Source: Eledone cirrhosa (taxonomy: Eukaryota). From it: a stretch of 64,000 bases of DNA. The translations under genes and the position numbers were made by a program. Below are positions 23,046 to 64,000 of the stretch, piece after piece (the first letter of the stretch is position 1; each line of letters opens with the position of its first letter). The stretch is taken from contig OZ024743.1 in assembly GCA_964016885.1 (NCBI GenBank), positions 16,802,001 to 16,866,000 on the forward strand, in the 5' to 3' direction. The notes under the pieces are model-generated. The model did not search any database. It was given only the letters and a program-made list of their open reading frames with translations, and was not told where the DNA came from.

Positions 23046-23102
23046 AATAATAATAATAATAATAATAATAATATTAATAATAATAATAATAATAATAATA
23101 AT
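23046..23102. repeat. (AAT)n tract, left boundary of the retrotransposon cluster
   Basis: Directly visible. Further tracts at 29090-29115, 30913-30989, 34628-34662, 34962-35017, 39532-39616, 44169-44201, 50223-50264 and 56303-56337. Confidence 0.98.
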
Positions 23103-23352
23103 GATTTCTTTATTAACCACAAGGGTTTACATAAAGTAGACATTAAGGACAGTGCAGGACAATGCAGGACGGTACAAATGGGCATTTCTGCGTGTAAAAA
23201 ACAAAAACAGAGGATGTAACAAAAAATAACAATGAAAAATTCCCCAATAGGGGGCAGACTTCGGAAGGACATTTGTGGAGAAAGCCCAGTAAAAAGCCAC
23301 AATGACCCTGACCACCAAGGCAAGTGCCCTCTCCCAGTTTTCCACCTTTAAT

Positions 23353-26300
23353 TTACAGATATAGAGTAGGCCCATTCACTCGGGCCATTCTTGCTTCTCT
23401 CACCCATCTTTCAACAAAATGGTGGGAAGAGAGCACTTCCCTCTCTACTCTGATTTTCCTTTTCAAATGAAATTTGAAAAAGTCAATCAGAGCATCAGCG
23501 AAGAGGTAAGTGCTCGTCTTCAGCCCTTTCAAACGTGTCCACCATACTATATCTTTCGCCATGGCCACCAGACAGATAAAAACTGCCTGCCCTTCCCGGC
23601 TAAAGGAGGAGGGCGGGGCAATCCTCACGATGGACTCAGATGATAGCCGGATCCGTCCTAAACGCGACAGCAGGTGTTCGAGATAAACCCACAAGTCAGC
23701 AGTTTTCGGACACTGGACGAGTTCGTGCAGGACGGTTTCGTCGCCCTGCGCGCATCTCGGACATGTCCGGCTGACGGTACCACAATGCCTGTAGAGTTTA
23801 TCCCGAACTGGCAAGGCTCCTCGGTAGCACTGCCAGGCCAGAGATTTCTGGAAGTTGTCCATAGGCCCTGGCCCGAAAGTTCTTCCGAAGAGATTGGCGT
23901 TGATTTTCGTCGACGCCTAGAGTTTCCCCAAGTACGACGTCGCTCTTCCCCTCCACTAATCCTCTATAGAACGCCGAGGTGGAGTTTCCACCGATCACAT
24001 TGCCCGATTGGTCGAGGGCTGTGAGCGCCTGAAGAAATTCCAGTCTCCAGGCGCTTCCACTCGGTCTTCGCTTGACCAAGGACTGCAGCTCCGTCAAGGA
24101 AACGAGCTGGGGAAATACGTGTCTAACAAACGGCGACCACACCTGATCACCGTCGAGGAAGAGGTGGAGATGTCGTAGCCTGAGCGCGTGCCTGCGCATC
24201 AACAGCCACGGCATGCCCAGCCCTCCACGTAGCGGGTGTTGACAACAGATGGACCGCCTGACCATCGGAGCGCGTCCCTTCCACAAAAAGCGAAAGAGAA
24301 AACGCTCCAGCGCAGTCAGGCGAGGCTTAGGACAAGGTACGACGGTCAGGCGGTAGCAGATGACAGACGCGATGTACGCGTTAGCCACCTCCGCTCGACC
24401 TTTCAGGGATAGCTTCCTCTTCGCCCATTTCTGGGTGAGAGAAGCCACCCTGCTCTTCACCTCGTCCCAATGTTTTGTCCGTCTGGAGGTCCGGACCGAA
24501 CCAGACCCCTAGCAATTTAACCGGTCCGACCGTGCAGCGTCCGACGACGCAGTTGGACTGCATGGATCTGACTCTCCAGGTGCCGAGCTGCAGGCCCACT
24601 GACTTTTCCTGGTTGATCATTGCTACTGTCACCGCTTCGTATTCTCTTAGTGTAGTTCCGATCGCCTCGATGTGTTTGGCGTTCGACACCGCAACGTTGA
24701 CATCATCCGCATATGCTGACACGGATCTTCCGCATCCTAGTTCGGGCAGGACACCCCTCAACGTCTCCAGTTTGTGCAGTAATGGCTCGAGAGTCAATAC
24801 GTACAAGAGGGAGGAGAGGGGACATCCTTGGAGGACCGAGCGCATGATGTCGAACGGTTCCGAAAGGTGACCGTTCACTCTCACCACAGAGCAGATGTCG
24901 CTGTGCCTGGCAGCGATCCAGCCTCTGAAGACGGGCCCAAAGCCAGCTGCCCTCAGGACTGCCGCTAGGTAACGATGGTCGATCCTATCGAAGGCTTTCG
25001 ACTGATCTAAATTGATCAAGGACTCACCCGTGCCAGGTTCCCTAGCTACCCTCTCTACGATGTATCGCATGGGGTGGAGGTTATCGTGGATGGATCTGTC
25101 GGGAATGGCGCATGTCTGCGCCTCTCCCACCAGACCACCAACGACAAGCGCCAAACTCTTTGCTAGCACCTTGGCCAACATCTTGAACTCCGTGTTTAGC
25201 AGAGTTATGGGCTGGAAATTATCTATGTTATCCCCCTTGTTCGGATCCTTTCTCAGCAGTGCCACCGCTCCTCGGCTCACAGAACTGGGAATTCTCCCGT
25301 GCTGTTGCCAGTTGCAGTAGACGTCCGCTAAGAGGCCTCCGAACAAGTCTGGCATCTGTACGTAAAGTTCATAGGGCAGACCATCCAAACCAGGCGATTT
25401 ACCCCTTGTACAGCCAGTCATTGCCTCCCTTACTTCAGCGGCTGTTATCAGCTTTTCGCAACACTTCGCCTCAGTGGCCGAGAGCCGCGGCAGTCCGTCG
25501 TGGTAGACATTAAAGTCCATCCCTCGACCCGGCCCACCGCTGCCCCCTAACAGCTGAGCGAAGTGTCGCTGAAAAGCTTCACACATTTGCCCGGGATCGA
25601 GTAGAATGCACCCTTCGTGGTCCACCAAAGACCGTATCGTGGCTTTGTTGCCACGACGCGCCTCCGCCACTCGGGCCCATTGAACGGCTTTCGTCCCCTC
25701 GTGTCTGAGAGCACGCACCCTAGCTCTGACTACGCAGCCTTCGTGCTTTGCATTGAAGAATTGGTCATGGGCCAATTTCGCCGCAAGCACGTCGGTCGCA
25801 ATGCCTTTGCTAAGCGCCTCGTCTAATTTTCTAACTAGTTCTCCCTCTGCTCTATTTTTCTCTATTGCTAAAGCCTTACTAAAGCTAATGTACTCTATTC
25901 TAATCGCTCTTTTCAGAGCAAATCACCACTTGTGGTTGACGATGGCCCCCGTCAATGCCCGCTTAACTAGTTCGCTAATCCGGTCTCTGTAGGCCTTACG
26001 CGCTGGTAAGGACGCGTTTAGCTTCCAGTAGCCGGGTCCTCGTCTATGAAGCCTATCTAAGTCAAGCACACAGATCACGAATTTGTGGTCCGTGTAGCTG
26101 ACTATCTTGAATTGTGGACAGCCTATGCTAGACCTATCTATTTCCCTACAAAATACTCTATCTAGCTATGATCTGGATGACCTTATGCGAATTGTCCAAG
26201 TCCACATTGGCACATTCGGAAAATCCAATCGGTACCTGTCAGACAGTTCAAAACGCCTGAGCAGGTTGGTGAGGCTTTTGCACCCCCCACCCTTCTCCGC

Positions 26301-26766
26301 TAATCCCCACAATCCCAGCGTGCATCTAAGGTCCAGTTCCAGTCGCCCACTAACACTAAAGAGCGGGACGTTCCAAGAAAGGTCTCCAGACGCCGGAAGA
26401 AATCAGGCCGCCCTGCCTTTGTCGAGGCATAGCTGGCCACTAGCCTGATAGCTTGCCCGTCTGCGCTGGTCACGTCCAGCACCACCACCTTACCCTCTGG
26501 GTCCAGGAAGATGGCCCGTATGGCGAGATCCAAACCTCTCCGAAAAAGCACAGTAACTCCCCCCCACCCGATCCAGGTCGGCTGGGAGATGCGTACACAT
26601 CGTAGCCGCCGATGATCGGTGCGAAGGCCCGTGCTTCGGAGATTCTGGTCTCGCTGATGGCCACTACATCTATGTTTAGTGACCTGAGGTCGTTGAGCAG
26701 GTGACCCTGCTTCCATGACGACCCCAAGCCACGCGCATTTATGCTGCCTATTCTGAGTGAGGTCAT
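23353..26766 (-). pseudogene. ORF2 (APE endonuclease-RT-zinc finger) of copy A, broken
   Basis: Fragments 26470-26766, 24381-25790 (QGCPLS, YADD), 23798-24460 and 23353-23862 match the intact ORF2 with frameshifts and stops. Confidence 0.92.
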
Positions 26767-26801
26767 GTTTAAAATAGAGTGGAAAAGATGGGAAAGACCA
26801 C

Positions 26802-28874
26802 TTACCGTACTTTTCGTAGAGGAGGGATGGTTTTTACATCCCTTTTCCCTTGATCGTCTGGTGAAGGGACCGTTGAATCGTCCCTTCGGCTGGTCGTCGG
26901 CTCTTCTATGAGTATGTCTGAATATACTCTTCGATTGATAGTTCCTCCTAGGTCCCTGAAATCACCAACTGCGTTGGGGAATTTCGTTTTAATGTTTGTG
27001 TATTGTTTCTGTGATATTTTTAGCAGTCTTATGTTAGTTGGCGTTTTGATTGGTGCTGGTATTATGTAGTCGTGTTGTGAAATGTCTGTGTGTTCAATTA
27101 TGTAAGTCATTAGTTTCTTGTTGTGTGTATTTATTGCCGTGCATTTGTTTTTCTGGGGGTGGGGTGTGGTTCTGCTATTTTCTTGTCGTTGTTGCTGGGT
27201 GTGTGTGTTTTGTTGTTGTGTTTGCGATGTTGGTGCTTGTGGTGGTGGTGTTGAAGGTGTTGTTGGCGGTGGGGTTGTCGCCGGTGGTGATGGTGGTGAT
27301 GGTGGTGCTGGTGTGGGTGGTGATGGTGTTGGTGGTGTTGCTGCTGTGAGTCTCTTTGCAGTAGACTTTACCCTTTTCTCATTTCTTTCCTCCCTTTTCA
27401 AAGGCGACGATGCGCTGCTTCTGCGTTTGTGCCTTCTTACGACCTTTTGCCATCTCTCTCCCACCTCACACTCCATGTCTGATTCTGTGAGGTCGGGGAG
27501 GGGTACCAGCTCCACTCTTTCACTTGTTGTTGTTGGTGATGTTTGCACTGGAGTCTCTGTTGCAGCTACATTTGGTATTGCTGTTGTTGTTGTTAATATT
27601 TCCACTGCTGCTGCTGTTTTTGATTTCCGTGGCGTGGGTATGGGTGCCACGGAGCTATCGTTCCTGGTTGCCGCTTGTCCTGTTGCTGGTAGCCGTGGAG
27701 CCGGTTTCGGAAGGAGGGGAGTTTTCTCCTTTCTCAGGATCTTCTCGTTGCAGATGGCCATGAGGTGAGTCTTCGATCCACAGCGAAAGCATTTCGGGAG
27801 TTTTCCCTCAACACTTATGGGCAGTTGAGTGCCGTTATCGACGTCTATCACACCCGGGAAAGATTCGATACACTCCTGGTTGGTTTGGATTAGCATCTCA
27901 ATGGAGGTGCCGACACAATCTTCTCTTACTTCTTTCTGTACTTGAAGTACAGTTGTTTTGTCCTTGATTCAGACGAGGACAGACGCGGCCAGCCAAGAAG
28001 GGGCCATCCCGGGGGGGACGTGGGTCAGTTTGACCCTCACAATTTTTTGCCCGCAGTATGAGGGCACCAACACCATTTCCTCGCTCCTTAGGCTCACTAC
28101 AGATTGAGCCTTTGCCTCCTGGGGTGTGGCAAAAAGTACGTCTACGGTGGCATATTTTTTGCCTCGGGTGATGTGCGTTTTCCGCTGCCACACAGACCCC
28201 AAGGCTTTTTGTATTTGAGCCTCTGTGGCTCTTTCAACCCTACGGGATTTTGTACTTACTGTACGGTACGTGACCGTACAGTGCTGTTGGGTTTCGAAAA
28301 CATTTTCCGGTGCCTTGCAGACTGCTTGGTGTCCAGTCTTTGTCACCATCTTCTTCGCTTCCTCTAATTCCTCATTTGTTATGAGGATTGTTTCCAGGTT
28401 CTTCGCAATACCTGCAAATGAGATTGGTTTTTCTTTGCTGCTGTTGTTGATATTGTCGTCAGAGCTGCTGTTACTTTTGTTGTTGCGGCTGCTGCTGTTG
28501 TTGTTGCTGCTAATACTGTTGTTGTTTATGCTGCTGCTGATGCTGTTGCGGCTGCTCCTGTTCTTTTCATTGTCACTGTTGCTGCTGTTATTACGGCTGC
28601 TACTGCTAATATTCCTGACGTCAGACGAGTGAAATGGGTTTTCGTATTTCCCGCACACCTTTTTCGTATTTGTCGTCGTCGTCGTGGAGAAATCTTGCTC
28701 GCTTTGCACGTGATTTTTCTTTTCTAGCGTCGCTTGCGAAATAGAAGGGAGGGAGAGAGACACATTTAGAGAAGGGAGGGAGAGAGACAATCTTCTCTCT
28801 GCTGTAGTGACGATTGAGGAAGTAGAAGACGGAATAAGTGGGAGTGACCTATGAAAATTATCTTCCGTAGCCAT
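26802..28874 (-). pseudogene. ORF1 (gag-like, CCHC knuckle) of copy A, premature stop at 27969
   Basis: MATEDNFH start, CFRCGSKTHLMAIC knuckle. TGA where copies B and C have GGA. Confidence 0.88.
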
Positions 28875-29115
28875 GTTGTTTTTTTGTTTAAAATATATAT
28901 TGGGCACAAAACCCCAATAGGCGGTTATTTAACCCCGAAGGGCCAAATAACGGGAAGAAAGACCCCACTCACGAGGAGGAGGGTGTTTTTGTTTACAAGT
29001 TCGTTAAAGTTTTAAACAATTTACAATTGTTATAGCGGTCAAAATGTACAATATTTTACAGAGCCGGACCTCCGTCAACCATAGCATTCAATAATAATAA
29101 TAATAATAATAATAA

Positions 29116-30912
29116 TTGACATGGTGCCTCATTCTTGGATCACCAAAAGCCTGGAGATCTTCAGGGTGGCAGATAACATCAGACAGTTGCTAGGCAGGAG
29201 TATGGGGTCCTGGGAGACAGAGTTGACATCAACTGGAGTATCCTTGGGAAGCGTGAAGATCAAGAGAGGTATCTTCCAGGGAGATAGCCTGTCCCCTCTG
29301 TTGTTTGTCCTTGCCCTGATGCCCTTGACCATTATGCTGCGAAATGTGAGAGCAGGATACAAGTTGGGAAAGGGAGAGCTTACCATCAATCACCTCCTCT
29401 TCATGGACGATCTTAAGCTCTTCGAGAAAAGTGAGAAGGAGTTGGATGTGCTTGTTGACACTGTCCGTATATTTAGCAGTGATATATGTATGCAGTTTGG
29501 TATTAGTAAATGTGGAGTCATTGTGATGAGGAGGGGTAGGTTGAGCAGAAGTAACGGTATCCAGATACCAACAGGTGAGATGATAAAGGAAATTGACTCT
29601 GAGGAAGGATACAAGTATTTGGGCGTTCTGGATGCTGATGGCATAAAGAACAAAAAAATGAAGGAATTGTTAAGAACTGAATACATTCGGAGAGTAAGGA
29701 GCGTATTGAAGTCACATCTGAACAGCAGAAATGCCATAAGCGCAGTAAATTCCCGAGCTGTGTCTATTATTAGGTACAGTGCGGGAATTCTGAGATGGAA
29801 TGTTGCTGAACAAAAAGAAATGGATAGGAAGACTAGGAAGCTATTGACTATCTACAACATGTTCCACAAGAGGAGTGATGTCGATAGACTCTACCTAAGG
29901 AGATCTGAGGGTGGAAGAGGTCTTATCAGCATAGAGGACTGTGTTCAGATGGAGAAAAACAACCTATACAAATACGTGACCTATAGTAAGGAGCCAATGC
30001 TCAGAACTGTACTGAAGGAGGGGACAGTAGGCCAGGGGATGTCCAATGAGGAAATAACATCAAGGAGGAAGAGCAGCCTTAAGGGAAAATCCCTTCATAG
30101 TACCTTCTTTGAGAAAACTGAATTTAGAGATCCACAGACATGGAACTGGTTCAGAAGAGGAGACCTCAAAAAGGCTACAGAAGGAATGCTAATGGCCGCG
30201 CAGGAGCAGGCCCTCAAAACGAAGTGGTTGAAGCACCATATTTACAAGGAGGAGGCTAGCCCACTGTGCAGGATCTGTGGAGAGAGAGAGGAGACTGTGG
30301 CTCACATTGTGTCCGAGTGTAAACACCTAGCCCAGACCCACTCTAAGGGCTGGAGACACGATGTGATGGGAGGGTGATCCACTGGCACCTGTGCAAAGTA
30401 AACAATTTACCACATTCTTAGAAATGGTATGAGCATAGGCCAGAGGCAGTGATGGAGAACAATCAGGTGAAGGTGCTGTGGGATTTTAGGATACAGACGG
30501 ACAAAAAACTGGAACACAATAGACCTGACCTGGTGGTTGTGGACAAAGAAAAAAGATCGTGTCTGATTGTGGATGTGGCCTGCCCTTTCGACACGAGAGT
30601 GCAAGAGAAGGAGAGGGAGAAAATTAACCGATACCAGGACCTAAAGTGGGAGGTGAAAAGGATTTGGAACTGCCATGAAGTCAAAGTGATCCCGATTGTC
30701 ATAGGCGCACTGGGGACTATCTCCAAAAGTTTCCAGGGATGGTTAAAGAAAATCGGCCCCTTCACGCTTTTTGGAACGCTTCAAAAGGCATGCTTGCTTG
30801 GAACAGCAAGAACCCTCCGATACGTCCTGAATATCTGAGGCTGCTGGTAGTGGCTTGATATTCATTCCAACGGACTTTCCAGTTAACCAACATCAATGAC
30901 TGAGATTCAAGG
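29116..30912 (+). mobile_element. R4/Dong-clade element family B, 5'-truncated copy
   Basis: [50 protein letters not shown] (restriction-like endonuclease). Frameshift near 30370. Starts inside RT directly after (AAT)n. Confidence 0.93.
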
Positions 30913-30924
30913 AATAACAACAAC

Positions 30925-30989
<65 letters not shown>

Positions 30990-30990
<1 letters not shown>

Positions 30991-33900
30991 CGGAATACTC
31001 CTACTGTTGGCCCTCCATGCTCTCCACCAAGAAATCCAAAGAAAAAGGGAGAAAAATGGTCAAGGGAAGATAATAAAGAAGTCCTTGAGGCTTTCTACAC
31101 TGCCATGTACTACCCATCAAATACATCGAATACAGAACAAACATATATCAACTGGAAAAAGAAACATCCCGAAAACAGAGGCTATATTGATAGTAACAAA
31201 CTAGCCAATATACGAAGAAATATTGTAAGAAAAAAGTTACTAACTGATATAGAAATTGATCACATCAAGCTAGTAGCACAAAGTCAGCGAAGGGAAAATG
31301 AAGCATGTGTCAGTGAAAACGAGGTAAACTGTAACACTTCGAATCCCAGGGTTGGGGCGGAATCACTGGCAACAGAACAAATTAAAGAAAGGAGCGAAAA
31401 AGTGGAGGGAGTGCATGCTCAGGATGAAACTCCAAATGAAAATAATGAGATCGTAAATGATAAAGAAATGAAAGAGAATGAACTTGCTAACTTGAAGGAT
31501 GAAATTATGATCGAATGGATGAAAATGAAAGAATCTGACATGGGGGAACGAGACACCCTCCCTAAGATTCAGAACTCCAAACAGAACCAAAAGATAATAC
31601 ACAAGACTAACCTAATTCTCAAAAACATTACCATCACAAACAAACTAAACATTACTGACTTAAATCATCTCTATTATGCATCGGCTAAAGTCACCACTCA
31701 CTTATGTGGAGTGAAGATGAAAAAACAAAGGAATTCCCACAAGAAATCTACTTGGCAAGATAACATCAATCGCCAAATAAACCTTCTCCGATCTGACATA
31801 GAAATTTTAACAAACTATAAAGTAGGTGAACATGTTAAACAAACTAAACTTAGAAAATTGAAAAAAAAGTACAGTATAAGATCAACATGTGACATAGACA
31901 TGCTGATAGAAACAATCATGCAAAAAGTGTCGGCCAAAGCTGCTCGTATAAGGCGCTTTGAAAAACGATCTAGATTCTATAAGGACAATAATATGTTCAA
32001 AAACAACCAAAGAAACTTCTACAGAAAAATTGGTAAGTCAACAATAACTGCTAAATCAATACCACCCAAGGAGGAAGTGCAAGAATTCTGGGAAAAGATC
32101 TGGGCCGAAGAAAAAGTTCATAACATACATGCCCCATGGATAGACAGACAAATGAAAGAAACAGCTCACCTTGAAGAACAAACATGGGAAATATTGAACA
32201 GCTGCGCTTGGCTCTAAGAAAAACCAGCAAATGGAAATCCCCAGGAAAAGACAAAATACAAAACTTTTGGATAAATGCCTTCACAGAGTCTCATGAGCTG
32301 TTAGCCCAACTTTACAATGAAATAGTTAAGGAGCCAGAAAAGATACCATCATGGCTAGTTAACGGCATTACATTCCTGCTACCGAAGAATGATGAGACAA
32401 ACAATCCCAAAAATTACAGACCGATAACCTGCTTGACCACAATGTATAAAATTTTAACATCAGTCCTAACTGAATACACATATGACCACCTGATAACAAA
32501 TGACCTATTTCCCATTGAGCAGAAAGGGTGTAAACGAGGCTCATATGGCTGTAAGGATCAGCTTCTGGTTAACAAAATGATACTGGAAGATTGTCATAAT
32601 AGACACAAAAATCTATCGATTGCTTGGATAGATTATAAAAAAGCATTTGATAGTTTGCCACACAGTTGGATTAAAAAATGTTTAGAGATTTTCAAAATAT
32701 CCCCCGTTGTCAGGAGGTTTTTGTCATTCAGTATGAGGACATGGAGAACGACACTCCTTTTGAATAGTGAAACAAAATCACTGGAAGCTGGAGAAGTTAA
32801 CATTAATTGTGGAATTTTTCAGGGTGACTCTTTATCACCGCTTTTATTCTGCATCGCACTTATAACATTAAGTAAAATGCTCAATGAAACAAAACATGGA
32901 TATAGAGTCTATGACAAAACCATTAATCACCTGTTCTGCATGGATGACCTGAAACTATTTGCAAAAAATGATGAACAATTGCAAGGGCTATTATCCACTG
33001 TGAAGCAGTTCAGTGATGACATTAAAATGGAGTTTGGACTGGATAAATGTGCCAAAGCAACGTTCACCAGAGGAAAGCTGCTGAAGAGTTCAGACATTAA
33101 TCTTGATCGGGGGAACGTGATAAGAGAGCTTGATCAAGAACAAACTTACAAATATCTAGGTGTTTGTGAAGGAGACGGAATCAAGCACTCGACAATGAGG
33201 GAAAGGATAAGGAAGGAATGTTACCGCAGAGTCAGAGCAATCTTAAGAACGGAATTGAATGCAAGGAATAGGATCGATGCCATAAACACGCTTGCCATAC
33301 CAGTAGTAACCTACAGTTACAATGTCATCAACTGGTCAAGCACAGAGATCCGTAGGCTCGATACAAAAATCCGAAAATTCTTAACCATGCACAGAATGCA
33401 TCACCCTAAGGCAGACATAGATAGAATATATCTCCCTAGGAAAGAAGGAGGACGTGGGTTAATCCAGTTAGACATTGCGTTGAAAACTGCAACAATTGGA
33501 TTATCCACATATCTAAGGGAATCACATGATTGGATGATCAAACTCGTTTTCAAACACGAAAGCACCAAAAGATCATATTCCATTACAAAAGATGCACAAA
33601 GATACAGTAATGGACTACAAATTTCAGAAGTCCCATTTACTGCTGAAATGGAAAACACAGAAAAAGCAAAGCAGGTAAAAGTAACTGCAAAGAAAGAACT
33701 GCTACAGAAACTGGCTAAGAAATGGCAAGAAAAGCCTCTGTATGGAAAATACCCAGAGCGAGCTAACAATCCTGATGTTGACAAAACTTTAACCCATCAG
33801 TGGTTGGCATCCTCTGGACTGAAATCGGAGACTGAAGGACTGATTATATCCGCACAAGATCAGTGTCTGCCAACAAAAAATTACCAAGCCAACATAATAA

Positions 33901-34627
33901 AAAATGGGTGCAGCCCATTATGCCGTGTATGCAAAAAACCACCAGAGACCATTGACCATATAATTTCAATGTGCAGTCCTATAGCTCCAACCGAATACCT
34001 AAACAGGCATGACAGAGCTGCACAATACATACATTGGATAATGTGTAAGCATTTTGACCTGCCCCATCAAAAGAATTGGTGGGAACATCAACCACCTCCC
34101 ATACTTGAAAAAGATCACATCTCAATCTTGTGGAACTTTAGCATCCAAACAGACCGAAAAAAAGATGCAAATAGACCTGATATAATATTGAAGGACTTTC
34201 AAAGGAGGGTATGCCTGCTAATTGATATGTCTGTTCCAATAGACAAGAATGTATCTATAAAAACATTTGAAAAATTGATCAAGTATAAGGACCTGGAGAT
34301 AGAAATTGGAAAAATGTGGAAATTGAGAACTAAAACAATACCAGTGGTTGTAGGCGCTCTGGGAATGATACCTAAGGGGTCTAACGACTACTTATCGCAA
34401 ATCCCAGGAAACCCGCGTATAGGAGAAATACAAAAGATAGTACTAATGGGAACTGCCCATATACTAAGGAAGATCCTGTCAATATAAGTACATCACAAGT
34501 CTAAACACTAAGGATGCATGTGTGAATATGTATGTTCTTTCTTGAACATGGCGGACCTTGTTGTCTCTTGAGGTCACTGGTTGTGACTTGGTGATAACTC
34601 GTATAAACATAAAGCAAGATAAATGCA
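30990..34627 (+). mobile_element. R4/Dong-clade element family A, near full-length, frameshifted
   Basis: ORFs 31105-32217 and 32184-34487 form one R4-type protein. Flanked by (AAT)n. Confidence 0.93.
31105..34487 (+). pseudogene. Family A polyprotein (N-terminal domain, RT, CCHC, PD-(D/E)xK endonuclease), frameshift near 32190
   Basis: [79 protein letters not shown]. Confidence 0.9.
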
Positions 34628-34660
<33 letters not shown>

Positions 34661-34663
<3 letters not shown>

Positions 34664-34960
34664 CTATAACAATACCAGTGGTTGTAGGCGCTCTGGGAAT
34701 GATACCTAAGGGGTCTAACGACTACTTATCGCAAATCCCAGGAAACCCGCGTATAGGAGAAATACAAAAGATAGTACTAATGGGAACTGCCCATATACTA
34801 AGGAAGATCCTGTCAATATAAATACATCACAAGTCTAAACACTAAGGATGCATGTGTGAATATGTATGTTCTTTCTTGAACATGGCGGACCTTGTTGTCT
34901 CTTGAGGTCACTGGTTGTGACTTGGTGATAACTCGTATAAACATAAAGCAAGATAAATGT
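34661..34960 (+). mobile_element. Family A 3'-terminal 300-bp copy
   Basis: Near-identical to 34328-34626, flanked by (AAT)n. Confidence 0.93.
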
Positions 34961-34961
34961 A

Positions 34962-35017
<56 letters not shown>

Positions 35018-38000: not shown

Positions 38001-39531
38001 CCATCAATCACCTCCTCTTCATGGACGACCTTAAGCTCTTCGGGAAAAGTGAGAAGGAGTTGGATGTGCTTGTTGACACTGTCCGTATTTTCAGCAGTGA
38101 TATATGTATGCAGTTTGGTATTGGTAAATGTGGAGTCATTGTGATGAAGAGGGGTAGGTTGAGCAGAAGTAACGGGATCCAGATACCAACAGGTGAGATG
38201 ATAAAGGAAATTGACTCTGAGGAAGGATACAAGTATTTGGGCGTTCTGGAGGCTGATGGCATAAAGAACAAAAAAATGAAGGAATTGTTAAGAACTGAAT
38301 ACATTCGGAGAGTAAGGAGCGTATTGAAGTCACATCTGAACAGCAGAAATGCCATAAGCGCAGTAAATTCCCGAGCTGTGTCTATTATTAGGTACAGTGC
38401 GGGAATTCTGAGATGGAATGTTGCTGAACAAAAAGAAATGGATAGGAAGACTAGGAAGCTATTGACTATCTACAACATGTTCCACAAGAGGAGTGATGTC
38501 GATAGACTCTACCTAAGGAGATCTGAGGGTGGAAGAGGTCTTATCAGCATAGAGGACTGTGTTCAGATGGAGAAAAACAACCTATACAAATACGTGACCT
38601 ATAGTAAGGAGCCAATGCTCAGAACTGCACTGAAGGAGGGGACAGTAGGCCAGGGGATGTCCAAGGAGGAAATAACATCAAGGAGGAAGAGCAGCCTTAA
38701 GGGAAAATCCCTTCATAGTACCTTCTTTGAGAAAACTGAATTTAGAGATCCACAGACATGGAACTGGTTGAGAAGAGGAGACCTCAAAAAGGCTACAGAA
38801 GGAATGTTAATGGCTGCGCAGGAGCAGGCCCTCAAAACGAAGTGGTTGAAGCACCATATCTACAAGGAGGAGGCTAGCCCACTGTGCAGGATCTGTGGAG
38901 AGAGAGAGGAGACTGTGGCTCACATTGTGTCCGAGTGTAAACACCTAGCCCAGACCCACTATAAGGGCTGGAGACACGATGTGATGGGCAGGGTGATCCA
39001 CTGGCACCTGTGCAAAGTAAACAATCTACCACATTCTGAGAAATGGTATGAGCATAGGCCAGAGGCGGTGATGGAGAACAATCAGGTGAAGGTGCTGTGG
39101 GATTTTAGGATACAGACGGACAAAAAACTGGAACACAATAGACCTGACCTGGTGGTTGTGGACAAAGAAAAAAGATCGTGCCTGATTGTGGATGTGGCCT
39201 GCCCGTTCGACACGAGAGTGCAAGAGAAGGAGAGGGAGAAAATTAACCGATACCAGGACCTAAAGTGGGAGGTGAAAAGAATTTGGAACTGCCATGAAGT
39301 CAAAGTGATCCCCATTGTCATAGGCGCACTGGGGACTATCTCCAAAAGCTTCCAGGGATGGTTAAAGAAAATCGGCCTCTTCACGCTTTTTGGAACGCTT
39401 CAAAAGGCATGCTTGCTTGGAACAGCAAGAACCCTCCGATACGTCCTGAATATCTGAGGCTGCAGGTAGTGGCTTGATATTCAATCCAACGGACTTTCCA
39501 GTTAACCAACATCAATGACTGAGATTCAAGG
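35018..39531 (+). mobile_element. R4/Dong-clade element family B, full-length copy 1
   Basis: Starts GGGAAGAAG after (AAT)n, about 1.05-kb leader, ORF 36066-39457, 3' end GAGATTCAAGG then AATAACAAC(AAT)n. Confidence 0.94.
36066..39457 (+). pseudogene. Family B polyprotein (RT plus restriction-like endonuclease), single frameshift at about 37597
   Basis: ORFs 36066-37670 and 37649-39457 join as LF[P][20 protein letters not shown] if one C is added. Confidence 0.9.
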
Positions 39532-39546
39532 AATAACAACAACAAC

Positions 39547-39616
<70 letters not shown>

Positions 39617-47871: not shown

Positions 47872-47906
47872 GTTTAAAATAGAGTGGAAAAGATGGGAAA
47901 GACCAC

Positions 47907-50008: not shown

Positions 50009-50222
50009 GTTGTTTTTTGTTTAAAATGAATATTGGGTACAAAACCCCAATAACTGGTTATTTAACCCCGAAGGGCCAAATAACGGACAGAAAGACCCCT
50101 CTCACGAGGAGGAGGGTGTCTTTATCAACAATTTGGTTCAAGTTTTAAACAATTTACAATTGTTTTAACGGTTAAAAATTACTATACCTTACAGAGCCGA
50201 GCCTCCGTCAACCATGGCATTC

Positions 50223-50266
<44 letters not shown>

Positions 50267-50525
50267 TTTCTTTATTAACCACAAGGGTTTACATAAAGTA
50301 GACATTAAGGACAGTGCAGGACAATGCAGGACGGTACAAATGGGCATTTCTGCGTATAAAAAACAAAAACAGAGGATGTAACAAAAATAACAATGAAAAT
50401 AACAATGAAAAATTCCCCAATAGTGGGGAGACTTCGGAGGGACATTTGTGGTGAAAGCCCAGTAAAAAGCCACAATGACCCTGACCACCAAGGCAAGTGC
50501 CCTCTCCCAGTTTTCCACCTTTAAT

Positions 50526-53500
50526 TTACAGATATATACACAGAGTAGGCCCATTCACTCGGGCCATTCTTGCTTCTCTCACCCATCTTTCAACAAAATG
50601 CTGGGAAGAGAGCACTTCCCTCTCTACTCTGATTTTCCTTTTCAAATGAAATTTGAAAAAGTCAATCAGAGCATCACCGAAGAGGTAAGTGCTCGTCTTC
50701 AGCCCTTTCAAACGTGTCCACCATACTATCTCTTTCACCATGGCCACCAGGCAGATAAAAACTGCCTGCCCTTCCCGGCTAAAGGAGGAGGGCGGGGCAA
50801 TCCTCACGATGGACTCAGATGATAGCCGGATCCGTCCTAAACGCGACAGCAGGTGTTCGACATAAACCCACAAGTCAGCAATTTTCGGACACTGGACGAG
50901 TGCGTGCAGGACGGTTTCGTCGCCCTGCGCGCATCTCGGACATGCCCGGCTGACGGCACCTCCATGCCTGTAGAGTTTATCCGGAACTGGCAAGGCTCCT
51001 CGGTAGCACTGCCAGGCCAGAGATTTCTGGAAGTTGTCCATAGGCCCTGGCCCGAAAGTTCTTCCGAAGAGATTGGCTAGTTGATTTTCGTCGACGCCTA
51101 GAGTTTCCCCAAGTACGTCGTCGCTCTTCCCCTCCACTAATCCTCTATAGAACGCCGAGGTGGAGTTTCCACCGATCACATTGCCCGATTGGTCGAGGGC
51201 TGTGAGCGCCTGAAGACATTCCAGTCTCCAGGCGCTCCCTCTCGGTCTTCGCTTGACCCAGGACTGCAGCTCCGTCAAGGAAACGAGCTGGGGAAAAACG
51301 CGTCTAGCAAACGGCGACCACACCTGATCACCGTCGAGGAAGAGGTAGAGATGTCGTAGCCTGAGCGCGTGCCTGCGCATCATCAGCCACGGCATGCCCA
51401 GCCCTCCACGTAGCGGGTGTTGACAACAGATGGACCGCCTGACCATCGAAGCACGTCCCTTCCACAAAAAGCGAAAGAGCAAACGCTCCAGCGCAGTCAG
51501 GCGAGGCTTAGGACAAGGTACGACGGTTAGGCGGTAGCAGATGACAGACGCGATGTACGCGTTAGCCACCTCCGCTCGACCTTTCAGGGATAGCTTCCTC
51601 TCCGCCCATTTCTGGGTGAGAGAAGCCACCCTGCTCGTCACCTCGTCCCAGTTTTTGTCCGTCTGGAGGTCCGGACCGAACCAGACCCCTAGCAGTTTAA
51701 CCGGTCCGTCCGTCCAGCGCCCGACGACGCTGTTGGACGGCATGGACCTGCCTCTCCAGGTGCCGAGCTGCAGGCCCACTGACTTTTCCTGGTTGATCAT
51801 TGCTCCTGTCACCGCTTCGTATTCTCTTAGTGTAGTGCCGATCGCCTCGATGTGTTTGGCGTTCGACACCACTACGGTGACATCGTCCGCATATGCTGAC
51901 ACGGATCTTCCGCATCCTAGTTCGCGCGGGACTCCCCTCAACGTCTCCAGTTTGTGCAGTAATGGCTCGAGCGTCAATACGTACAAGAGGGACGAGAGGG
52001 GACATCCTTGGCGGACCGAGCGCATGATGTTGAACGGTTCCGACAGGTGACCGTTCACTCTCACCACAGAGCAGATGTCGCTGTGCATGGCAGCGATCCA
52101 GCCTCTGAAGACGGGCCCAAAGCCAGCCGCCCTCAGGACTGCCGCTAGGTAACGATGGTCGACCCTATCGAAAGCTTTCGACTGATCTAAATTGATCAAG
52201 GACCCACCCGTGCCAGGTTCCCTAGCTACCCTCTCTACGATGTATCGCATGAGGTGGAGGTTGTCGTGGATGGATCTGTCGGGAATGGCGCATGTCTGCG
52301 CCTCTCCCACCAGACCACCAACGACAAGCGCCAACCTCTTTGCTAGCACCTTGGCCAAAATCTTAAACTCTGTGTTTAGCAGAGTTATGGGCCGGAAATT
52401 GTCTATGTTATCCCCCTTGTTCGGATCCTTTCTCAGCAGTGCCACCGCTCCTCGGCTCACAGAACTGGGAATTCTCCCGTTGTGTTGCCAGTTGCAGTAG
52501 ACGTCCGCCAAGAGGCCTCCGAACAAGTCTGGCATCTGTACGTAAAGTTCATAGGGCAGACAATCCAAACCAGGCGATTTACCCCTTGTGCAGCCAGTCA
52601 TTGCCTCCCTTACTTCAGCGGCTGTTATCGGCTTTTCGCAACACTTCGCCTCAGTGGCCGAGAGCCGCGGCAGTCCGTCGAGGTAGACACTAAAGTCCAT
52701 CCCTCTACCCGGCCCCCCGCTGCCCCCGAACAGCTGAGCGAAGTGTCGCTGAAAAGCTTCACACATTTGCCCGGGATCGAGTAGCATGCGCCCGTCGTGG
52801 TCCACCAAAGACCGGATCGTGGCTTTGTTGCCACGACGCGCCTCCGCCACTCGGGCCCATTGAACGGCTTTCGTCCCCTCGTGTCTGAGAGCACGCACCC
52901 TAGCTCTGACAACGCAGCCTTCGTGCTTTGCATTGAAGAATTGGTCAAGGGCCAATTTCGCCGCAAGCACGTCGGTCGCAATGCCTTTGCTAAGCGCCTC
53001 GTCTAATTTTCTAACTAGTTCTCCCTCTGCTCTATTTTTCTCTATTGCTAAAGCCTTACTAAACCTAATCGATTCTATTCTAATCGCTCTTTTCAGAGCA
53101 AACCACCACTTGTTGTTGACGATGGCCCCCGTCAACGCCCGCTTAACTAGTTCGCTAATCCGGTCTCTGTAGGCCTTGCGCGCTGGTAAGGACGCGTTTA
53201 GCTTCCAGTAGCCGGGTCCTCGTCTATGAAGCCTATCTAGGTCAAGCACACAGATCACGAATTTGTGGTCCGTGTAGCTGACTATCTTGAATTGTGGACA
53301 GCCTATGCTAGACCTATCTATTTCCCTACAAAATACTCTATCTAGATATGATCTGGATGACCCTATGCGGTTTGTCCAAGTCTACATTGGCACATTCGGG
53401 AAATCCAATCGGTACCTGTCAGACAGTTCAAAACGCCTGAGCAGGTTGGTGAGGCTCTTGCACCCTCCACCCCTATCCGCTAATCCCACACAGTCCCAGC

Positions 53501-53945
53501 GTGCATCTAAGATCCCGTTCCAGTCGCCCACTAACACTAAAGAGCGGGACGTTCCAAGAAAGGTCTCCAGACGCCGGAAGAAATCAGGCCGCCCTGCTCC
53601 TGTCGGGGCATAGACGGCCACTAGCCTGAAAACTTGCCCGTCTCCGCTGGTCACGTCCAGCACCACCAGCTTACCCTCTGGGTCCAGGAAGATGGCCCGT
53701 ATGGCGAGATCCAAACCTCTCCGAAAAAGCACAGCAACTCCTCCACCCGATCCAGGACGGCTGGGAGATGCGTACACATCGTAGCCGCCGAAGATCGGTA
53801 CGAAGGCCCGTGCTTCGGAGATTCTGGTCTCGCTGATGGCCACTACATCTATGTTTAGTGACCTGAGGTCGTTGAGCAGGTGACCCTGCTTCCATGACGA
53901 CCCCAAGCCACGCGCATTTATGCTGCCTATTCTGAGTGAGGTCAT
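50526..53945 (-). pseudogene. ORF2 of copy C with one premature stop (TGG>TAG at 53382-53384)
   Basis: ORFs 53382-53945 and 50526-53258 are in frame and match copy B. Confidence 0.92.
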
Positions 53946-53980
53946 GTTTAAAATAGAGTGGAAAAGATGGGAAAGACCAC

Positions 53981-56088
53981 TTACCGTACTTTTGGTAGAG
54001 GAGGGATGGTTTTTACATCCCTTTTCACTTGATCGTCTGGTGAAGGGACCGTTGAATCGTCCCTTCGGCTGGTCGTCGGCTCTTCTAAGAGAATGTCTGA
54101 GTATACTCTTCGATTGATGGTTCCTCCTAGGTCCCTGAAATCACCAACTGCGTTGGGGAATTTCGTTTTAATGTTTGTGTATTGTTTCTGTGCTATTTTT
54201 AGCAGTCTTATGTTAGTTGGCGTTTTGATTGGTGCTGGTATTATGTAGTCCTGTTGTGAAATGTCTGTGTGTTCAATTATGTAAGTCATTAGTTTCTTGT
54301 TGTGTGTATTTATTGCCGTGCATTTGTTTTTCTGGGGGTGGGGTGTGGTTCTGCTATTTTTCTTGTCGTTGTTGCTGGGTGTGTGTGTTTTGTTGTTGTG
54401 TTTGCGATGTTGGTGCTTGTGGTGGTGGTGTTGAAGGTGTTGTTGGCGGTGGGGTTGTCGCCGGTGGTGATGGTGGCGCTAGTGTGTGTGGTGATGGTGT
54501 TGGTGTTGTTGCTGCTGTGGGTCTCTTTGCAGTAGACTTTACCCTTTTCTCATTTCTTTCCTCCCTTTTCAAAGGCGACGATGCGCTGCTTCTGCGTTTG
54601 TGCCTTCTTACGACCTTTTGCCATCTCTCTCCCACCTCACACTCCATGTCTGATTCTGTGAGGTCGGGGAGGGGTACCAGCTCCACTCTTTCACTTGTTG
54701 TTGTTGATGATGTTTGCACTGGAGTCTCTATTGCAGCTGCATTTGGTATTGCTGTTGTTGTTGTTAGTATTTCCACTGCTGCTGCTGTTTTTGATTTCCG
54801 TGGAGTGGGTATGGGTGCCACGGGCCTATCGTTCCTGGTTGCCGCTTGTCCTGTTGCTGGTAGCCGTGGAGCCGGATTCGGAAGGAGGGGGGTTTTCTCC
54901 TTTCTCAGGGTCTTCTCGTTGCAGAAGGCCCTGAGGTGAGTCTTCGATCCACAGCGAAAGCATTTCGGGCGTTTGCCCTCAACACTTATGGGCAGTTGAG
55001 TGCCGTTATCGAAGTCTATCACATCCGGGATAGCTTCGATGCACTCCTGGTTGGTTTGGATTAGCATCTCAATGGAGGAGCCGACCCAATCTTCTCTTAC
55101 TTTTTTCTGTACTTGCAGTACAGTTGTTTTGTCCTCGATTCCGACGAGGACAGACGCGGCCAGCCAAGAAGGGGTCATTCCGGGGGGGGGGGGGGGGGAC
55201 GTGGGTCAGTTTGACCCTCACAATTTTTTGCCCACAGTAGGAGGGCACCAACACCATTTCCTCGCTCCTTAGGGTCACTACTGATTGGGCCTTTGGCTCC
55301 TGGGGTGTGGCAAAAAGTACGTCTACGGTGGCATATTTTTTGCCTCGGGTGATGTGCGTTTTCCGCTGCCACACAGACCCCAAGGCTTTTTGTATTTGGG
55401 CCTCTGTGGCTCTTTCCACCCTACGGGATTTTGTACTTACTGTACGGTACGTGACCGTACAGTGCTCTTGGGTTTCGAAAAATTTTTCCGCTGTCTTGCA
55501 GATTGCTCGGTGTCCGTTCTGTGTCACCATCTTCTTCGCTTCCTCTAATTCCTCATTTGTTATGAGGATTGTTTCCAAGTTTTTCGCAATACCTGCAAAT
55601 GAGATTGTTTTTTCTCTGCTGTTGTTGTTGTCGTCAGAGCTGCTGGTACTTTTGTTGTTGCTGCAGGTACTACGACTACTGCCTCCGCCGCTGTTGCTGT
55701 GGTTGTTGTTGGTGTTGCTGCTGCTAATGCTGTTGTTGTTTATGCTGCTGGTGATGCTGTTGCGGCTGCTACTGTTGTTTTCATTGTCACTGTTGCTGTT
55801 GTTATTACGGCTGCTACTGCTATTATTCCTGACGTCAGACGAATGAACTGGGTTTTCGTATTTCCCGCACACCTGTTTCGTCGCTGTCGTCGTCGTCGTG
55901 GAGAAACCTTGCACGCTTTGCACGAGACTTTTCTTTTCTTTCGTCACTTGCGAAAGAGAAGGGAGGGAGAGAGACACATTTAAAGAAGGGAGGGAGAGAG
56001 ACAATCTTCTCTCTGCTGTAGTGATGATTGAGGAAGAAGAAGACGGAATGAGTGGGAGTGACGTATGAAATTTCTTTTTCGTAGCCAT
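53981..56088 (-). pseudogene. ORF1 of copy C with two homopolymer frameshifts
   Basis: C17 run at 55182-55198 and an extra A at about 54356-54361 split the ORF. Confidence 0.85.
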
Positions 56089-56302
56089 GTTGTTTTTTGT
56101 TTAAAATGAATATTGGGTACAAAACCCCAATAACTGGTTATTTAACCCCGAAGGGCCAAATAACGGACAGAAAGACCCCTCTCACGAGGAGGAGGGTGTC
56201 TTTATCAACAATTTGGTTCAAGTTTTAAACAATTTACAATTGTTTTAACGGTTAAAAATTACTATACCTTACAGAGCCGAGCCTCCGTCAACCATGGCAT
56301 TC

Positions 56303-56365
<63 letters not shown>

Positions 56366-56378
56366 AAGAAGAAGAAGA
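56303..56378. repeat. (AAT)n(GAA)n compound microsatellite, right boundary of the cluster
   Basis: Directly visible. Confidence 0.97.
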
Positions 56379-59320: not shown

Positions 59321-59399
<79 letters not shown>

Positions 59400-59409
59400 A
59401 TGTATATAT

Positions 59410-60330: not shown

Positions 60331-60477
60331 TAACCCAGAAAAGAGAGAGAGAGAGATAAAAAAGGAAAAAAAAAATATTTTTCTTCCCAATAGACGTCTC
60401 TTTCTCCCAGTTTTCATATATATTTATATCTTAACTCGTGTGCTTCCTCTCCATATTTTATTATTTATATATATATA

Positions 60478-60659
60478 GCGGTGGATTGGCAGTATCGGTA
60501 GAGGGTCGGACGCCATGCTTTCCAGCATAGTTACGTCCCTTTACCATCTGAGTTCAAATCCCGCCGAGGTTGACTTTGCCTTTCATCCTTACGGGGTCGA
60601 TAAAATAAAGTACCAGTAATGCACTGGTAATTGCTGGCCTTGTGCCTAAAGTAGAAACA
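60478..60659 (+). mobile_element. tRNA-derived SINE, copy 3
   Basis: Same family. Target duplication ATTATTTATATATATATA at 60460-60477 and 60660-60677. Confidence 0.92.
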
Positions 60660-60660
60660 A

Positions 60661-60710
<50 letters not shown>

Positions 60711-60713
<3 letters not shown>

Positions 60714-60908
60714 AACTAGGAGGACCCCGACGGCTCAGCTCAAGCCGTTCCGACGGCTAATTCTGGACTCCAGTCCAGAATTAGCCGTCGAAACGGCTTG
60801 AGCTCAGCCGTCGGGGTCCTACTCGTTCCTATTACCCACTCTACTACCCTAAGTATTGAGTACTTTGGTGCGTTATGGTCCACCTGGTTCCTTACCACAT
60901 TTCCTTCG

Positions 60909-60911: not shown

Positions 60912-60949
<38 letters not shown>

Positions 60950-61686: not shown

Positions 61687-63378
61687 CCCTCTTGTTCCCC
61701 TTATATGTACTGGCCCTCTAGCCGTTACTGCACAAATATGAGACGATGAGGGGGTGCCACGCGAACTGGGATGCGGGAGATCCGTGTCAGCTTACGCCGA
61801 CGACGTCAACGTGGTAGTGTCAAGCAGCAAACACGTCCAGATGTTCAGCACCGCTCTCAAGGAATACGAAGCGGTGACAGGAGCAAAGATAAACCAGGAA
61901 AGTTGGTGTGCTTGCAACACGGCACTTGGAGAGGCAAGACCATGCTGTTCGACAGCGTCGTGGGGCGCTGGACGGAAGGACAGGTTAAATTGGTCGGTGT
62001 CTGGTACGGTCCGGATCTCCAGATGGAGAAAAACTGGAGCGAGGTGACGAGCAGGCTGGCCTCTCTAACCCAGATATGGGCCGAGGAGAGGCTGTCTCCG
62101 AAAGGACGGGCGGAAGTGGCGAATCTGTACATAGCGTCCGTCATCTGCTACCGCCTAACTCTCGTACCTCGCCCCCGCCAAACTCTGACCAAAATGGAGC
62201 ACCATCTCTTCCACTGTTTGTGGAAGCGACGTGCTCCCATGGTCAGAAGATCCATTTGCTGTCAACACGCGTTGCGTGGAGACTAGGCCTATCGTGGCTG
62301 ATTATGCGCAATCATCCGGTGAGGTTGCGACATCTCTGGTGCATCCTTGACGGTGAACAGGTGTGGTCGCCGTTTGCCAGACGCGCTTTTCCCTAGGTCG
62401 TCTCCTTGACGGAGCTGCAGTCCTGGATCAGGTAAAGACCGAGGGATAGCGCTTGGAAGCTGGGATATCACCAAGTGGTCACCGCCCTCTACCAGCTGGA
62501 CACTAATATCGGTGGAACATCCACCTCGGCGTTCTATAGAAGGCTAGTGGAGGGAAAGAGCAACGATGTTCTCGGGGAGACCCTGGGCATCGAGACGCTC
62601 AGCTGTTCCCTCTCTTCAAGAGAACTCTCAGACCGGGGCCTATGGACAACTTCCAGGTTCCCTGGCCTGGTAGTGCCACCGGGAAGCGTTGCCTGTTTAG
62701 TATAAGCTCTACAGGCACCGAGGTGCTGTCAGCCGAGCCTGGCCGAGATGCGCGCACAGCGACGAAACCGTCCTGCACGCACTCGTTCAGTGCCCGAGGA
62801 TAGCTGACTTGTGGTCTATGTCTAATGGCTGCTGTCGCGTGTAGGACGGATCCGGTTATCGACTGAGTCCATTGTGCAGATAGCCCCGCCATTCTCCTTT
62901 AAAGATGAGGAAGGGCAGGTAGTTTTCATCTGCCTGGTGGCCATGGCGAAATAGATTGTGTGGTGGGCAAGGTTGAAAGGGTTGAAGACGGACACTTTCC
63001 TCTGCGGACAATCCCTGATTAACTTTTTCAAGTCTCACTTGAAGAAGAAAATCAGGGTGGAGAAGCAGGTGTTGAAAGGTGGGTGAAAGTGGCGAGTCTG
63101 CCTGCCATGAGTATATGCTTGTAGACTGAGGAGTGGGAACACTGAGAGAGGGCGCTTACCCTGGTGGTCAGGATGGACGTTGTCTTTTGTGTGGTTTATG
63201 CCACGAGTAACCCACGTAGGTTTCCCCCTTTTGGGGATTTTTTGTTGTTTGAAATTTTATTTCTATCCCGATTTCAATCTTGTTATAACGACGAAAAACC
63301 ACTTTATAACGGCCTGTACTGTTCTGTGCCCCCTCTAATGTTTTTCTTCATGTTAACCCTTGTGGCCAATAAAGAAAA
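61687..63378 (+). mobile_element. Older, diverged L1/Tx1-clade relative, 5'-truncated within RT
   Basis: PRELGCGRSVSAYADD, GVWYGPDLQ, PMVRRSICCQH match ORF2 of copy B, with many stops. Ends AATAAAGAAAAT(ATT)n. Confidence 0.9.
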
Positions 63379-63398
63379 TATTATTATTATTATTATAG

Positions 63399-63892
63399 TT
63401 GCATTTATATTGCTTTATGTTCATACGAGTTATCACCAAGTCACAACCAGTGACCTCAAGAGACAACAAGGTCCGCCATGTTCAAGAAAGAACACATACA
63501 CACACATGCATCCTTAGGTGTTTAGACTTGTGATGTACTTATATTGACAGTATCTTCCTTAGTATAAGGGCAGTTCGGATTAGTACTATCTTTTGTATTT
63601 CTCCTATACGCGGGTTTTCTGGGATTTGCGATAAGTAATCATTAGATACCTTAGGTATCATTCCTAGAGCGCCTACAACCACTGGTATTGTTTTAGTTCT
63701 CAATTTCCACATTTTTCCGATTGCTATCTCCAGGTCCTTATACTTGCTCAGTTTCTCAAGTATTTTTATAGATACATTCTTGTCTATTGGAACGGACATA
63801 TCAATTAGCAGGCATACACTCTTTTTAAAGTCCTTCAGTATTATATCAGGTGTATTTGCATCTATTTTTCGGTCTGTTTGGATGCTAAAGTT
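63399..63892 (-). mobile_element. R4/Dong family A 3' fragment
   Basis: Reverse complement of about 34134-34627 (MSVPIDKNVSIK...ILRKILSI plus 3' UTR). Flanked by (TTA)n. Confidence 0.92.
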
Positions 63893-63910
63893 ATTATTAT
63901 TATTATTGTT

Positions 63911-64000
63911 CTTTGAGTCTCAGTCACTGATGTTATTTTACTTGAAAGTTTGTTGAAATGAATATCAAGCCACTACCTGCAGCCTAAGAGATTCAGGGCG
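63911..64000 (-). mobile_element. 3' end of a diverged R4/Dong family B relative (runs off the window)
   Basis: - strand AGGCTGCAGGTAGTGGCTTGATATTCA...TGACTGAGACTCAAAGAAC(AAT)n matches 39457-39531. Confidence 0.85.

Follow-up and report, generated by a model that had tools for sequence, protein, structure and literature searches.

Target-specific long interspersed nuclear elements (LINEs) normally have a fixed polarity. Among the systems described so far, (TAA)n is reported as the target of Dong elements in most insects, molluscs, and cnidarians (PMC7998251; also PMC3812793). Microsatellite targets given for the Tx1 clade are (TC)n for Kibi, (TTC)n for Koshi, and (TTCC)n/(TTTC)n for crocodilian Tx1 (PMC4494074), and known elements of this clade that target U2 small nuclear RNA (snRNA) genes include Keno (PMC4640811). 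Here we describe a 64,000-nucleotide stretch of DNA from Eledone cirrhosa contig OZ024743.1 (hereafter the window, whose positions give all coordinates), in which the same AAT/ATT microsatellites house nested copies of a Tx1-type family and of two Dong/R4-type families, the two types keeping fixed opposite polarity. We favor, at a probability of about 0.7, the reading that they are likely there as sequence-specific elements primed on different strands.

Every ingredient of this arrangement has a precedent, the Dong half of the pattern is already known, and we propose no new kind of system. Dong of Bombyx mori, DongAg, DongBg of the snail Biomphalaria, and ostracod Dong1/2 are described as having, like the copies reported here, a single open reading frame (ORF) with reverse transcriptase (RT), CCHC, and restriction-like endonuclease (RLE) domains, sense-(TAA)n on both sides, and a 5′ junction after TAA (PMC3812793, PMC3774820, PMC7998251). 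Unlike the known Dong elements, those of the window include two families, 40% alike, in one array, and a 5′ untranslated region (UTR) of ~1 kb. Kibi, Koshi, and crocodilian Tx1 are described as LINEs with two ORFs and an apurinic/apyrimidinic endonuclease (APE), as here, lying in a microsatellite that is written T-rich, and their target units are given in sense orientation. The Tx1-type copies differ from Kibi and Koshi, with which they were compared by description only, in their TTA unit, cephalopod host, and own RT lineage, and their target is neither (TC)n nor (TTC)n. In the telomeric (TTAGG)n repeats of Bombyx, TRAS1 and SART1 likewise represent two LINE lineages that face opposite ways within a single tandem repeat, and the TRAS1 endonuclease nicks at T^A (PMC7265360). 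Both of these are APE elements at telomeres, whereas the window pairs RLE with APE in dispersed trinucleotide microsatellites. TRAS1 and SART1 belong to the R1 clade; the system described here works like them and is not a member of their group. At U2 snRNA genes, Keno (Tx1 clade, APE) and Utopia (RLE) are described as APE and RLE lineages converged on one target, as here (PMC4640811). They share the same site in a gene, with identical 3′ flanks and hence the same orientation, whereas opposite repeat strands are used in the window.

Against this background, a (TTA)n-targeting Tx1-type lineage of cephalopods, in 33-kb mixed arrays with Dong, appears to be new, and likely new, too, is the use of a single microsatellite by an RLE and an APE element on opposite strands. 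No Tx1 element with a TTA, ATT, or TAA target was found in the searchable literature, which consists mostly of open papers; Repbase and the supplementary target list of PMC4494074 lie outside it and may record one. Nor did this literature, with its few subscription papers, yield a report of Dong-Tx1 mixed arrays. Dong-R4 and L1-Tx1 elements are reported as recently active in Octopus vulgaris in a source whose accessible text leaves their targets unmentioned (PMC13282606), and a Dong consensus is all that is mentioned in PMC9115989.

The main array (23045-56378, 33.3 kb) comprises 8 non-LTR (LTR, long terminal repeat) retrotransposon copies (32.8 kb) and 9 (AAT)n spacers between them and at the edges. 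All 5 Dong-type copies lie on the + strand, all 3 Tx1-type copies lie on the − strand, and all 9 spacers read (AAT)n on the + strand. A second cluster begins at 61687 and leaves the window; its Tx1 copy is on the + strand, its DongB and DongA copies are on the − strand, and its 2 spacers read (TTA)n on the + strand.

At the left edge of the main array, a (TAA)n spacer (23045-23102) forms the 3′ flank of Tx1_c1 (23103-29089, −), a full-length Tx1-type LINE of 5987 bp with stops and frameshifts in ORF2 and 95.5 to 95.8% identity to Tx1_c2 and Tx1_c3. Beyond its 5′ end, an (AAT)9 spacer (29090-29116) separates it head-to-head from DongA_t (29117-30912, +), which is truncated on the 5′ side and retains the 3′ part of the RT, CCHC, and RLE. 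A spacer made of DongA tail with AAC units and then (AAT)n (30913-30989) leads to DongB_1 (30990-34627, +), a member of the second Dong-type family with one frameshift and a probably truncated 5′ end. DongB_2 (34663-34961, +), a 299-bp DongB 3′ end 99% identical to DongB_1, lies between (AAT)n spacers at 34628-34662 and 34962-35017. DongA_1 (35018-39531, +) and DongA_2 (39617-44168, +) are full-length, their single ORF being split by the same one frameshift, and the spacer between them (39532-39616) again holds DongA tail with AAC units followed by (AAT)n. A tail-to-tail spacer (44169-44201) joins DongA_2 to another full-length element, Tx1_c2 (44202-50222, −), and (AAT)14 (50223-50264) separates the latter from full-length Tx1_c3 (50265-56302, −). 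The right edge (56303-56378), which is the 5′ flank of Tx1_c3 and not tail derived, consists of (AAT)11 and then (AAG)14. In the second cluster, Tx1_c4 (61687-63380, +) is an old, 5′-truncated copy 75% identical to Tx1_c2. It is followed by a tail-to-tail (TTA)5 spacer (63381-63398), DongB_3 (63399-63889, −; a 491-bp 3′ end, 94% identical to DongB_1), a second (TTA)5 spacer (63890-63908), and DongA_3 (63909-64000, −), the 3′ end of a DongA-related copy (83 to 85% identical to DongA) that continues past the window edge.

The element classes, their orientations, the phases of their junctions, and their exclusive link to AAT arrays can be read directly from the DNA. A sequence-only reading of the window had proposed a strict strand partition, and it holds in both clusters: the sense strand ends in (TAA)n in 7/7 Dong-type copies and in (TTA)n in 4/4 Tx1-type copies. 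That reading counted 11 of 11 copies, a figure that stands at the 3′ ends; when the 5′ flanks are used instead, 9 copies can be scored and 9/9 agree. Dong 5′ flanks carry sense-(TAA)n at 6/6 visible ends (that of DongA_3 lies beyond the window), and (TTA)n is present at 3/4 Tx1 5′ ends and 4/4 Tx1 3′ ends. In a window-wide scan for repeat arrays of at least 15 bp, 11/11 AAT arrays abut an element. The (TA)n and (AG)n repeats abundant across this animal DNA behave otherwise, with contact to an element in 0/43 other microsatellites (30 AT, 8 AG, 2 AC, and 1 each of AAG, AAAT, and AAAG). The single AAG array lies immediately next to the last AAT spacer. Treating the 11 copies as 11 independent tests was rejected, because there are near-identical neighbors among them (Tx1_c2/c3, DongA_1/2, and DongB_1/2), and we estimate about 8 independent insertions from sequence identity. 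With one free polarity per lineage, the chance of such agreement under random orientation is 0.002 for 11 copies and 0.016 to 0.03 for 8. The rule is consistent whichever way the repeat of a cluster runs, and for copies that are 75 to 99% alike.

The junctions are also consistent in phase. The Tx1 5′ junction reads (TTA)nTT/GAATG, with the slash marking the element boundary, and is identical in 3/3 full-length copies, including Tx1_c1 at 4.5% divergence; the 3′ junction is readable as /ATT in 4/4 copies. A 5′ TT/ combined with a 3′ /ATT implies that each strand is cut between T and A. The L1 endonuclease is described as cutting at TTTT/A (PMC3649969) and that of TRAS1 at TT^AGG (PMC7265360). 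Every Tx1 copy (4/4) has AATAAA 12 to 13 nucleotides (nt) from the element end, and no junction carries poly(A). Of the Dong 5′ junctions, 5/6 fit TAA/, three of these with 1 to 2 nt of microhomology, and the junction primer given for B. mori Dong, (TAA)7 and then the element, has the polarity and phase seen here (PMC3774820). AAC units lie beside the 3′ end in 4/4 DongA copies and in no other spacer, and the 3′ repeat is thus partly element templated.

A simple explanation for these data could be that the Tx1-type element is not repeat specific. It would carry its own (TTA)n tail, short-repeat tails being frequent among LINEs, and this tail would attract Dong in reverse orientation, its 5′ repeat flanks would stem from local tandem duplication plus a shared hot spot, and the partition would be largely tautological. 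In keeping with this, spacers touching a 3′ end, and thus possibly tail, make up 9/11, Tx1_c2/c3 and DongA_1/2 are near-identical neighbors, and Tx1_c4 has no 5′ repeat, with two Dong copies sitting in the tail behind it. The two spacers that touch 5′ ends alone, 29090-29116 and 56303-56337, argue otherwise. Both fit the rule, and because they touch no 3′ end they cannot be element tail, which would make them the cleanest evidence for a pre-existing target. Moreover, the diverged copy Tx1_c1 has the same 5′ junction to the base, and both outer flanks of the array are AAT. We therefore consider this explanation unlikely, though it is the main rival to the one we favor.

Directly outside the last AAT spacer, at 56336-56378, lies (AAG)14; along the sense strand of Tx1 it is (TTC)n, the unit targeted by Koshi. 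The array may have begun in a compound microsatellite. This (TTC)14 tract, 35 bp outside the Tx1_c3 5′ end, holds no junction; the Tx1 junctions sit in (TTA)n.

In target-primed reverse transcription (TPRT), the strand complementary to the element sense strand is nicked and primes the cDNA. The priming geometry that the sequence-only reading had derived under this model is borne out: the TTA strand primes Dong and the TAA strand primes Tx1. The RLE and APE types that the reading had named are confirmed by domains and motifs. Sequence alone cannot show the strand choice of an endonuclease, and the same pattern is predicted if the RNA 3′ end pairs with the primer. In the mechanism we favor, the Dong RLE, probably guided by an N-terminal Myb-like domain, would nick the TTA strand, and Dong RNA ending in AAC/AAT units would pair with the TTA-strand primer, giving a 5′ junction after TAA. 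The Tx1 AP-endonuclease would nick T^A steps, like the L1 and TRAS1 endonucleases. AATAAA near the Tx1 end would direct 3′ processing inside the downstream repeat and so leave (UUA)k on the RNA; this would pair only with the TAA strand, which would explain both the Tx1 polarity and the lack of poly(A) in 4/4 copies. Specific nicking would thus be reinforced by RNA-primer pairing. L1 priming is described as requiring primer-RNA pairing (PMC3649969), and SART1 and R1Bm as using target-like 3′ sequence (PMC7265360). Every insertion would leave repeat on both sides and so provide all three families with a fresh target, and arrays would lengthen through successive insertions, together with a degree of local duplication or conversion; the second cluster, where an old Tx1 copy has two younger Dong copies past its tail, fits this order.

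A variant of this mechanism dispenses with nicking specificity: both endonucleases would nick either AAT strand, and polarity would come only from pairing between the RNA 3′ repeat and the primer, a frozen accident kept by read-through tails. The T^A cuts on both strands implied by the Tx1 junctions, the 4/4 Tx1 copies free of poly(A), and the L1 pairing rules (PMC3649969) would all agree with it. Swaps of the SART1 and TRAS1 endonucleases, however, are reported to change the target, and the domain is termed the primary determinant (PMC7265360). We regard this variant as very unlikely.

Beyond the window, contigs from two runs (X1 and X6) cover both elements deeply, in a layout that skips repeat ends and lists 15 of its 636 joints and 12 of its 3556 loose ends. 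Contig depth in both runs rises toward the 3′ halves, as many truncated copies would give. Among the joints listed, 2/2 between Dong and Tx1 are opposite oriented. One X1 contig, among the 12 of 169 rows listed, holds a very short Tx1 3′ fragment head-to-head with a truncated DongA, with ~3.7 AAT units between them and both junctions in the predicted phases. Two raw-read runs, in which 1 and 2 reads were placed of 12.8 million each, were uninformative. A search for in-frame poly-L/Y/I or poly-N starts among 241 and then 149 proteins gave one poly-I run, in the distant Dong-type protein P0212, which is compatible with either repeat polarity.

Several observations weigh against sequence-specific insertion by both lineages. 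The data come from one window, two loci, and ~8 events, with 3 full-length Tx1 5′ ends, two of them 99% identical. The Tx1_c4 5′ end is without repeat, so that targeting may be loose or the end lost, and the DongA_2 5′ junction is off phase. Only one record supports the head-to-head joint of X1, and diverged Tx1 3′ UTR could account for part of the repeat in it. Finally, AAT repeat occurs at 0/12 of the loose ends listed, all of which fall inside elements in a layout with repeat ends skipped.

The APE-type copies, three on the − strand in the main array and one on the + strand at 61687, form one group. Only Tx1_c2 has an intact ORF2 (44455-47871, 1139 aa), with endonuclease and RT motifs; that of Tx1_c3 has one stop, and those of Tx1_c1 and Tx1_c4 are broken. 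ORF2 carries an endonuclease, an RT, and a C-terminal CCHC, and its alignment with human L1 ORF2p spans 850 residues. ORF1, frameshifted in Tx1_c2, carries a CCHC zinc knuckle, and the whole has the domain layout of the Tx1 clade. Tx1_c2 and Tx1_c3 are 99.0% identical in a mild mosaic, with 5 substitutions in the first 2 kb and 54 in the remaining 4 kb. Protein relatives come from Argonauta hians (78% over part of the length), Octopus sinensis, O. bimaculoides, and a cuttlefish, pointing to a likely octopod host, and close relatives in the protein collection are 65 to 82% identical. A 68 to 70% relative of ORF2 (P0244/P0365) is filed as Herbaspirillum sp. on a 1.8-kb contig and is likely animal DNA contaminating a bacterial bin.

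In quick RT trees, built without a named Tx1 or L1 reference, the Tx1-type ORF2 and unnamed relatives form a strongly supported lineage of their own. This joins metagenome loci flanked by U2 snRNA (Keno-like) and 5S rRNA, flanks also found on known Tx1-clade elements, at moderate support, with Shimodaira-Hasegawa-like approximate likelihood ratio test (SH-aLRT) values of 85 (118 rows) and 91 (39 rows, hand-picked from the 118 plus an outgroup). A metagenome scan gave at least 80 distant relatives at 23 to 41% identity. Among those listed, repeats of at least 15 bp included no AAT/ATT flank, the single 15-bp ATT run, in L077, lying far from the match. These distant relatives are uninformative on targeting by this lineage. 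Rfam places U2 snRNA or 5S rRNA flanks on several of them (L012:4675-4885, L013:1-123 and 5806-5947, L020:5815-5977, L016:5495-5618, and L026:5892-6010), and L003, L006, and L013 have an internal U2-like stretch upstream of ORF2. Scans of viral contigs for related elements gave no match, and a 30-residue match in a prokaryote scan was taken as chance.

The remaining seven copies fall into two families, DongA and DongB, which share 40% protein identity over the RT-RLE half. In both we found an RT (PF00078), a CCHC, and an RPD..D..K restriction-like endonuclease motif. The best solved relatives of the Dong-type proteins are R2 proteins, and the RLE stretch aligns to one of these. A single ORF with a non-LTR RT, a C-terminal CCHC plus PD-(D/E)xK endonuclease, and sense-(TAA)n on both sides are marks of the R4/Dong clade, and the seven copies, with these domains, are classed as R4/Dong-type. 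None of 120 listed homologs is a named Dong or R4. The clade is marked further by a divergent SANT/Myb-like domain in place of an N-terminal zinc finger. A frameshift separates the halves of the Dong ORF. The N-terminal half of DongA shows no C2H2-like zinc-finger pattern and no Pfam match; in the Atlas it matches a Myb_Rap1 cluster at 0.83, which serves as a lead only, and reaches 0.90 to 0.92 with unnamed clusters from arthropods, molluscs, and cnidarians. B. mori Dong and R4 carry a 5′ hepatitis delta virus (HDV)-like ribozyme, whereas none was found at a Dong 5′ end here by Rfam or by a pattern of our own, the latter without a positive control.

DongA_1 and DongA_2 differ by 56 substitutions in the first 876 nt and by 7 over the entire last 3.6 kb, with 0 in the 1.67 kb directly after nt 876; such a mosaic suggests that the tandem copies underwent conversion or recombination. 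At the frameshift common to these two copies, the X6 contig and about half of the X1 depth depart from the window sequence, which indicates that they share the defect via duplication, conversion, or a common defective source. Two near-identical tandem pairs with mosaic identity might also be produced by an assembly artefact, if long reads were collapsed or duplicated in part of the array. Yet 59 and 63 substitutions, as well as spacer lengths, distinguish the members of the pairs, and the diverged copies and the second cluster follow the rule as well; of all the explanations weighed here, this is the least probable.

The sequence-only reading had further suggested that read-through at head-to-head and tail-to-tail junctions would generate antisense RNA against the other lineage. 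For the head-to-head junction at 29090-29116 this was rejected: the elements point apart, and the Dong copy at 29117 is 5′ truncated. At the tail-to-tail junction at 63381-63398, both neighbors are 5′ truncated. The suggestion is plausible at one junction, 44169-44201, the only one between two full-length copies. Neither AATAAA nor ATTAAA occurs in the last 150 nt of DongA_2 or on the + strand through 50300 (~6 kb), and Tx1 has its AATAAA, so that read-through is more likely one-way, from Dong on the + strand into anti-Tx1, the reverse direction on the − strand being less likely. Antisense to Tx1_c2 from DongA_2 read-through is thus possible, as judged from the signals present. Such a full-length convergent pair, with 6 kb of + strand free of poly(A) signals, is what might be expected if orientation reflected selection or silencing after insertion, for example through retention of convergent antisense-making pairs, and not the insertion mechanism. 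However, the truncated, promoterless copies DongA_t, DongB_2, and DongB_3 follow the rule too, the base-exact junction phases suggest a mechanism, and the Dong polarity matches that in B. mori. We consider an origin by selection highly improbable.

The heads of DongA and Tx1, which are unrelated lineages, share the motif TGACGGAGG over 9 to 11 bp, 13 to 20 nt from the element start (35037-35047 and 39636-39646 on the + strand in DongA; 29067-29077, 50202-50210, and 56282-56290 on the − strand in Tx1), the match with Tx1_c1 being 11 bp long. Among 5000 shuffles, 11 bp was reached in 1 and 9 bp in 49, for a motif noticed post hoc. It is a possible common internal promoter motif. A more far-reaching picture would have the RLE and APE lineages each take one strand of a single microsatellite and create landing sites for the other, forming self-extending octopod arrays that are co-regulated via this motif and act, through Dong read-through antisense to Tx1, as small-RNA traps. 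We think this picture doubtful, and distinctly unlikely as a whole.

Other repeats in the window include a long inverted repeat (10700-14808) with 1.85-kb arms at 90.6% identity, whose inner ORFs have no Pfam match of weight. A near-perfect hairpin element of ~120 bp lies in (TA)n tracts at 60709-60832, with related copies at 17902-18377 and 6500-6708; its Rfam microRNA matches are below threshold, and it is possibly a (TA)n-associated miniature element. An interspersed repeat of ~230 bp occurs in three copies 87 to 89% alike (1242-1473, 19554-19762, and 60444-60674), which from its appearance we take to resemble a short interspersed nuclear element (SINE).

If the orientation rule holds genome-wide, (TTA)n would be a new target for the Tx1 group, and the two lineages would form a natural pair of unrelated endonucleases acting on opposite sides of one three-base duplex. 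The pair makes the long-standing question of what sets LINE polarity, the nuclease or RNA-primer pairing, testable on one substrate, for which the intact Tx1 ORF2 at 44455-47871 is usable. AAT microsatellites would then be sinks for two recently active groups of octopod LINEs, a matter of relevance to marker design and to the annotation of repeats.

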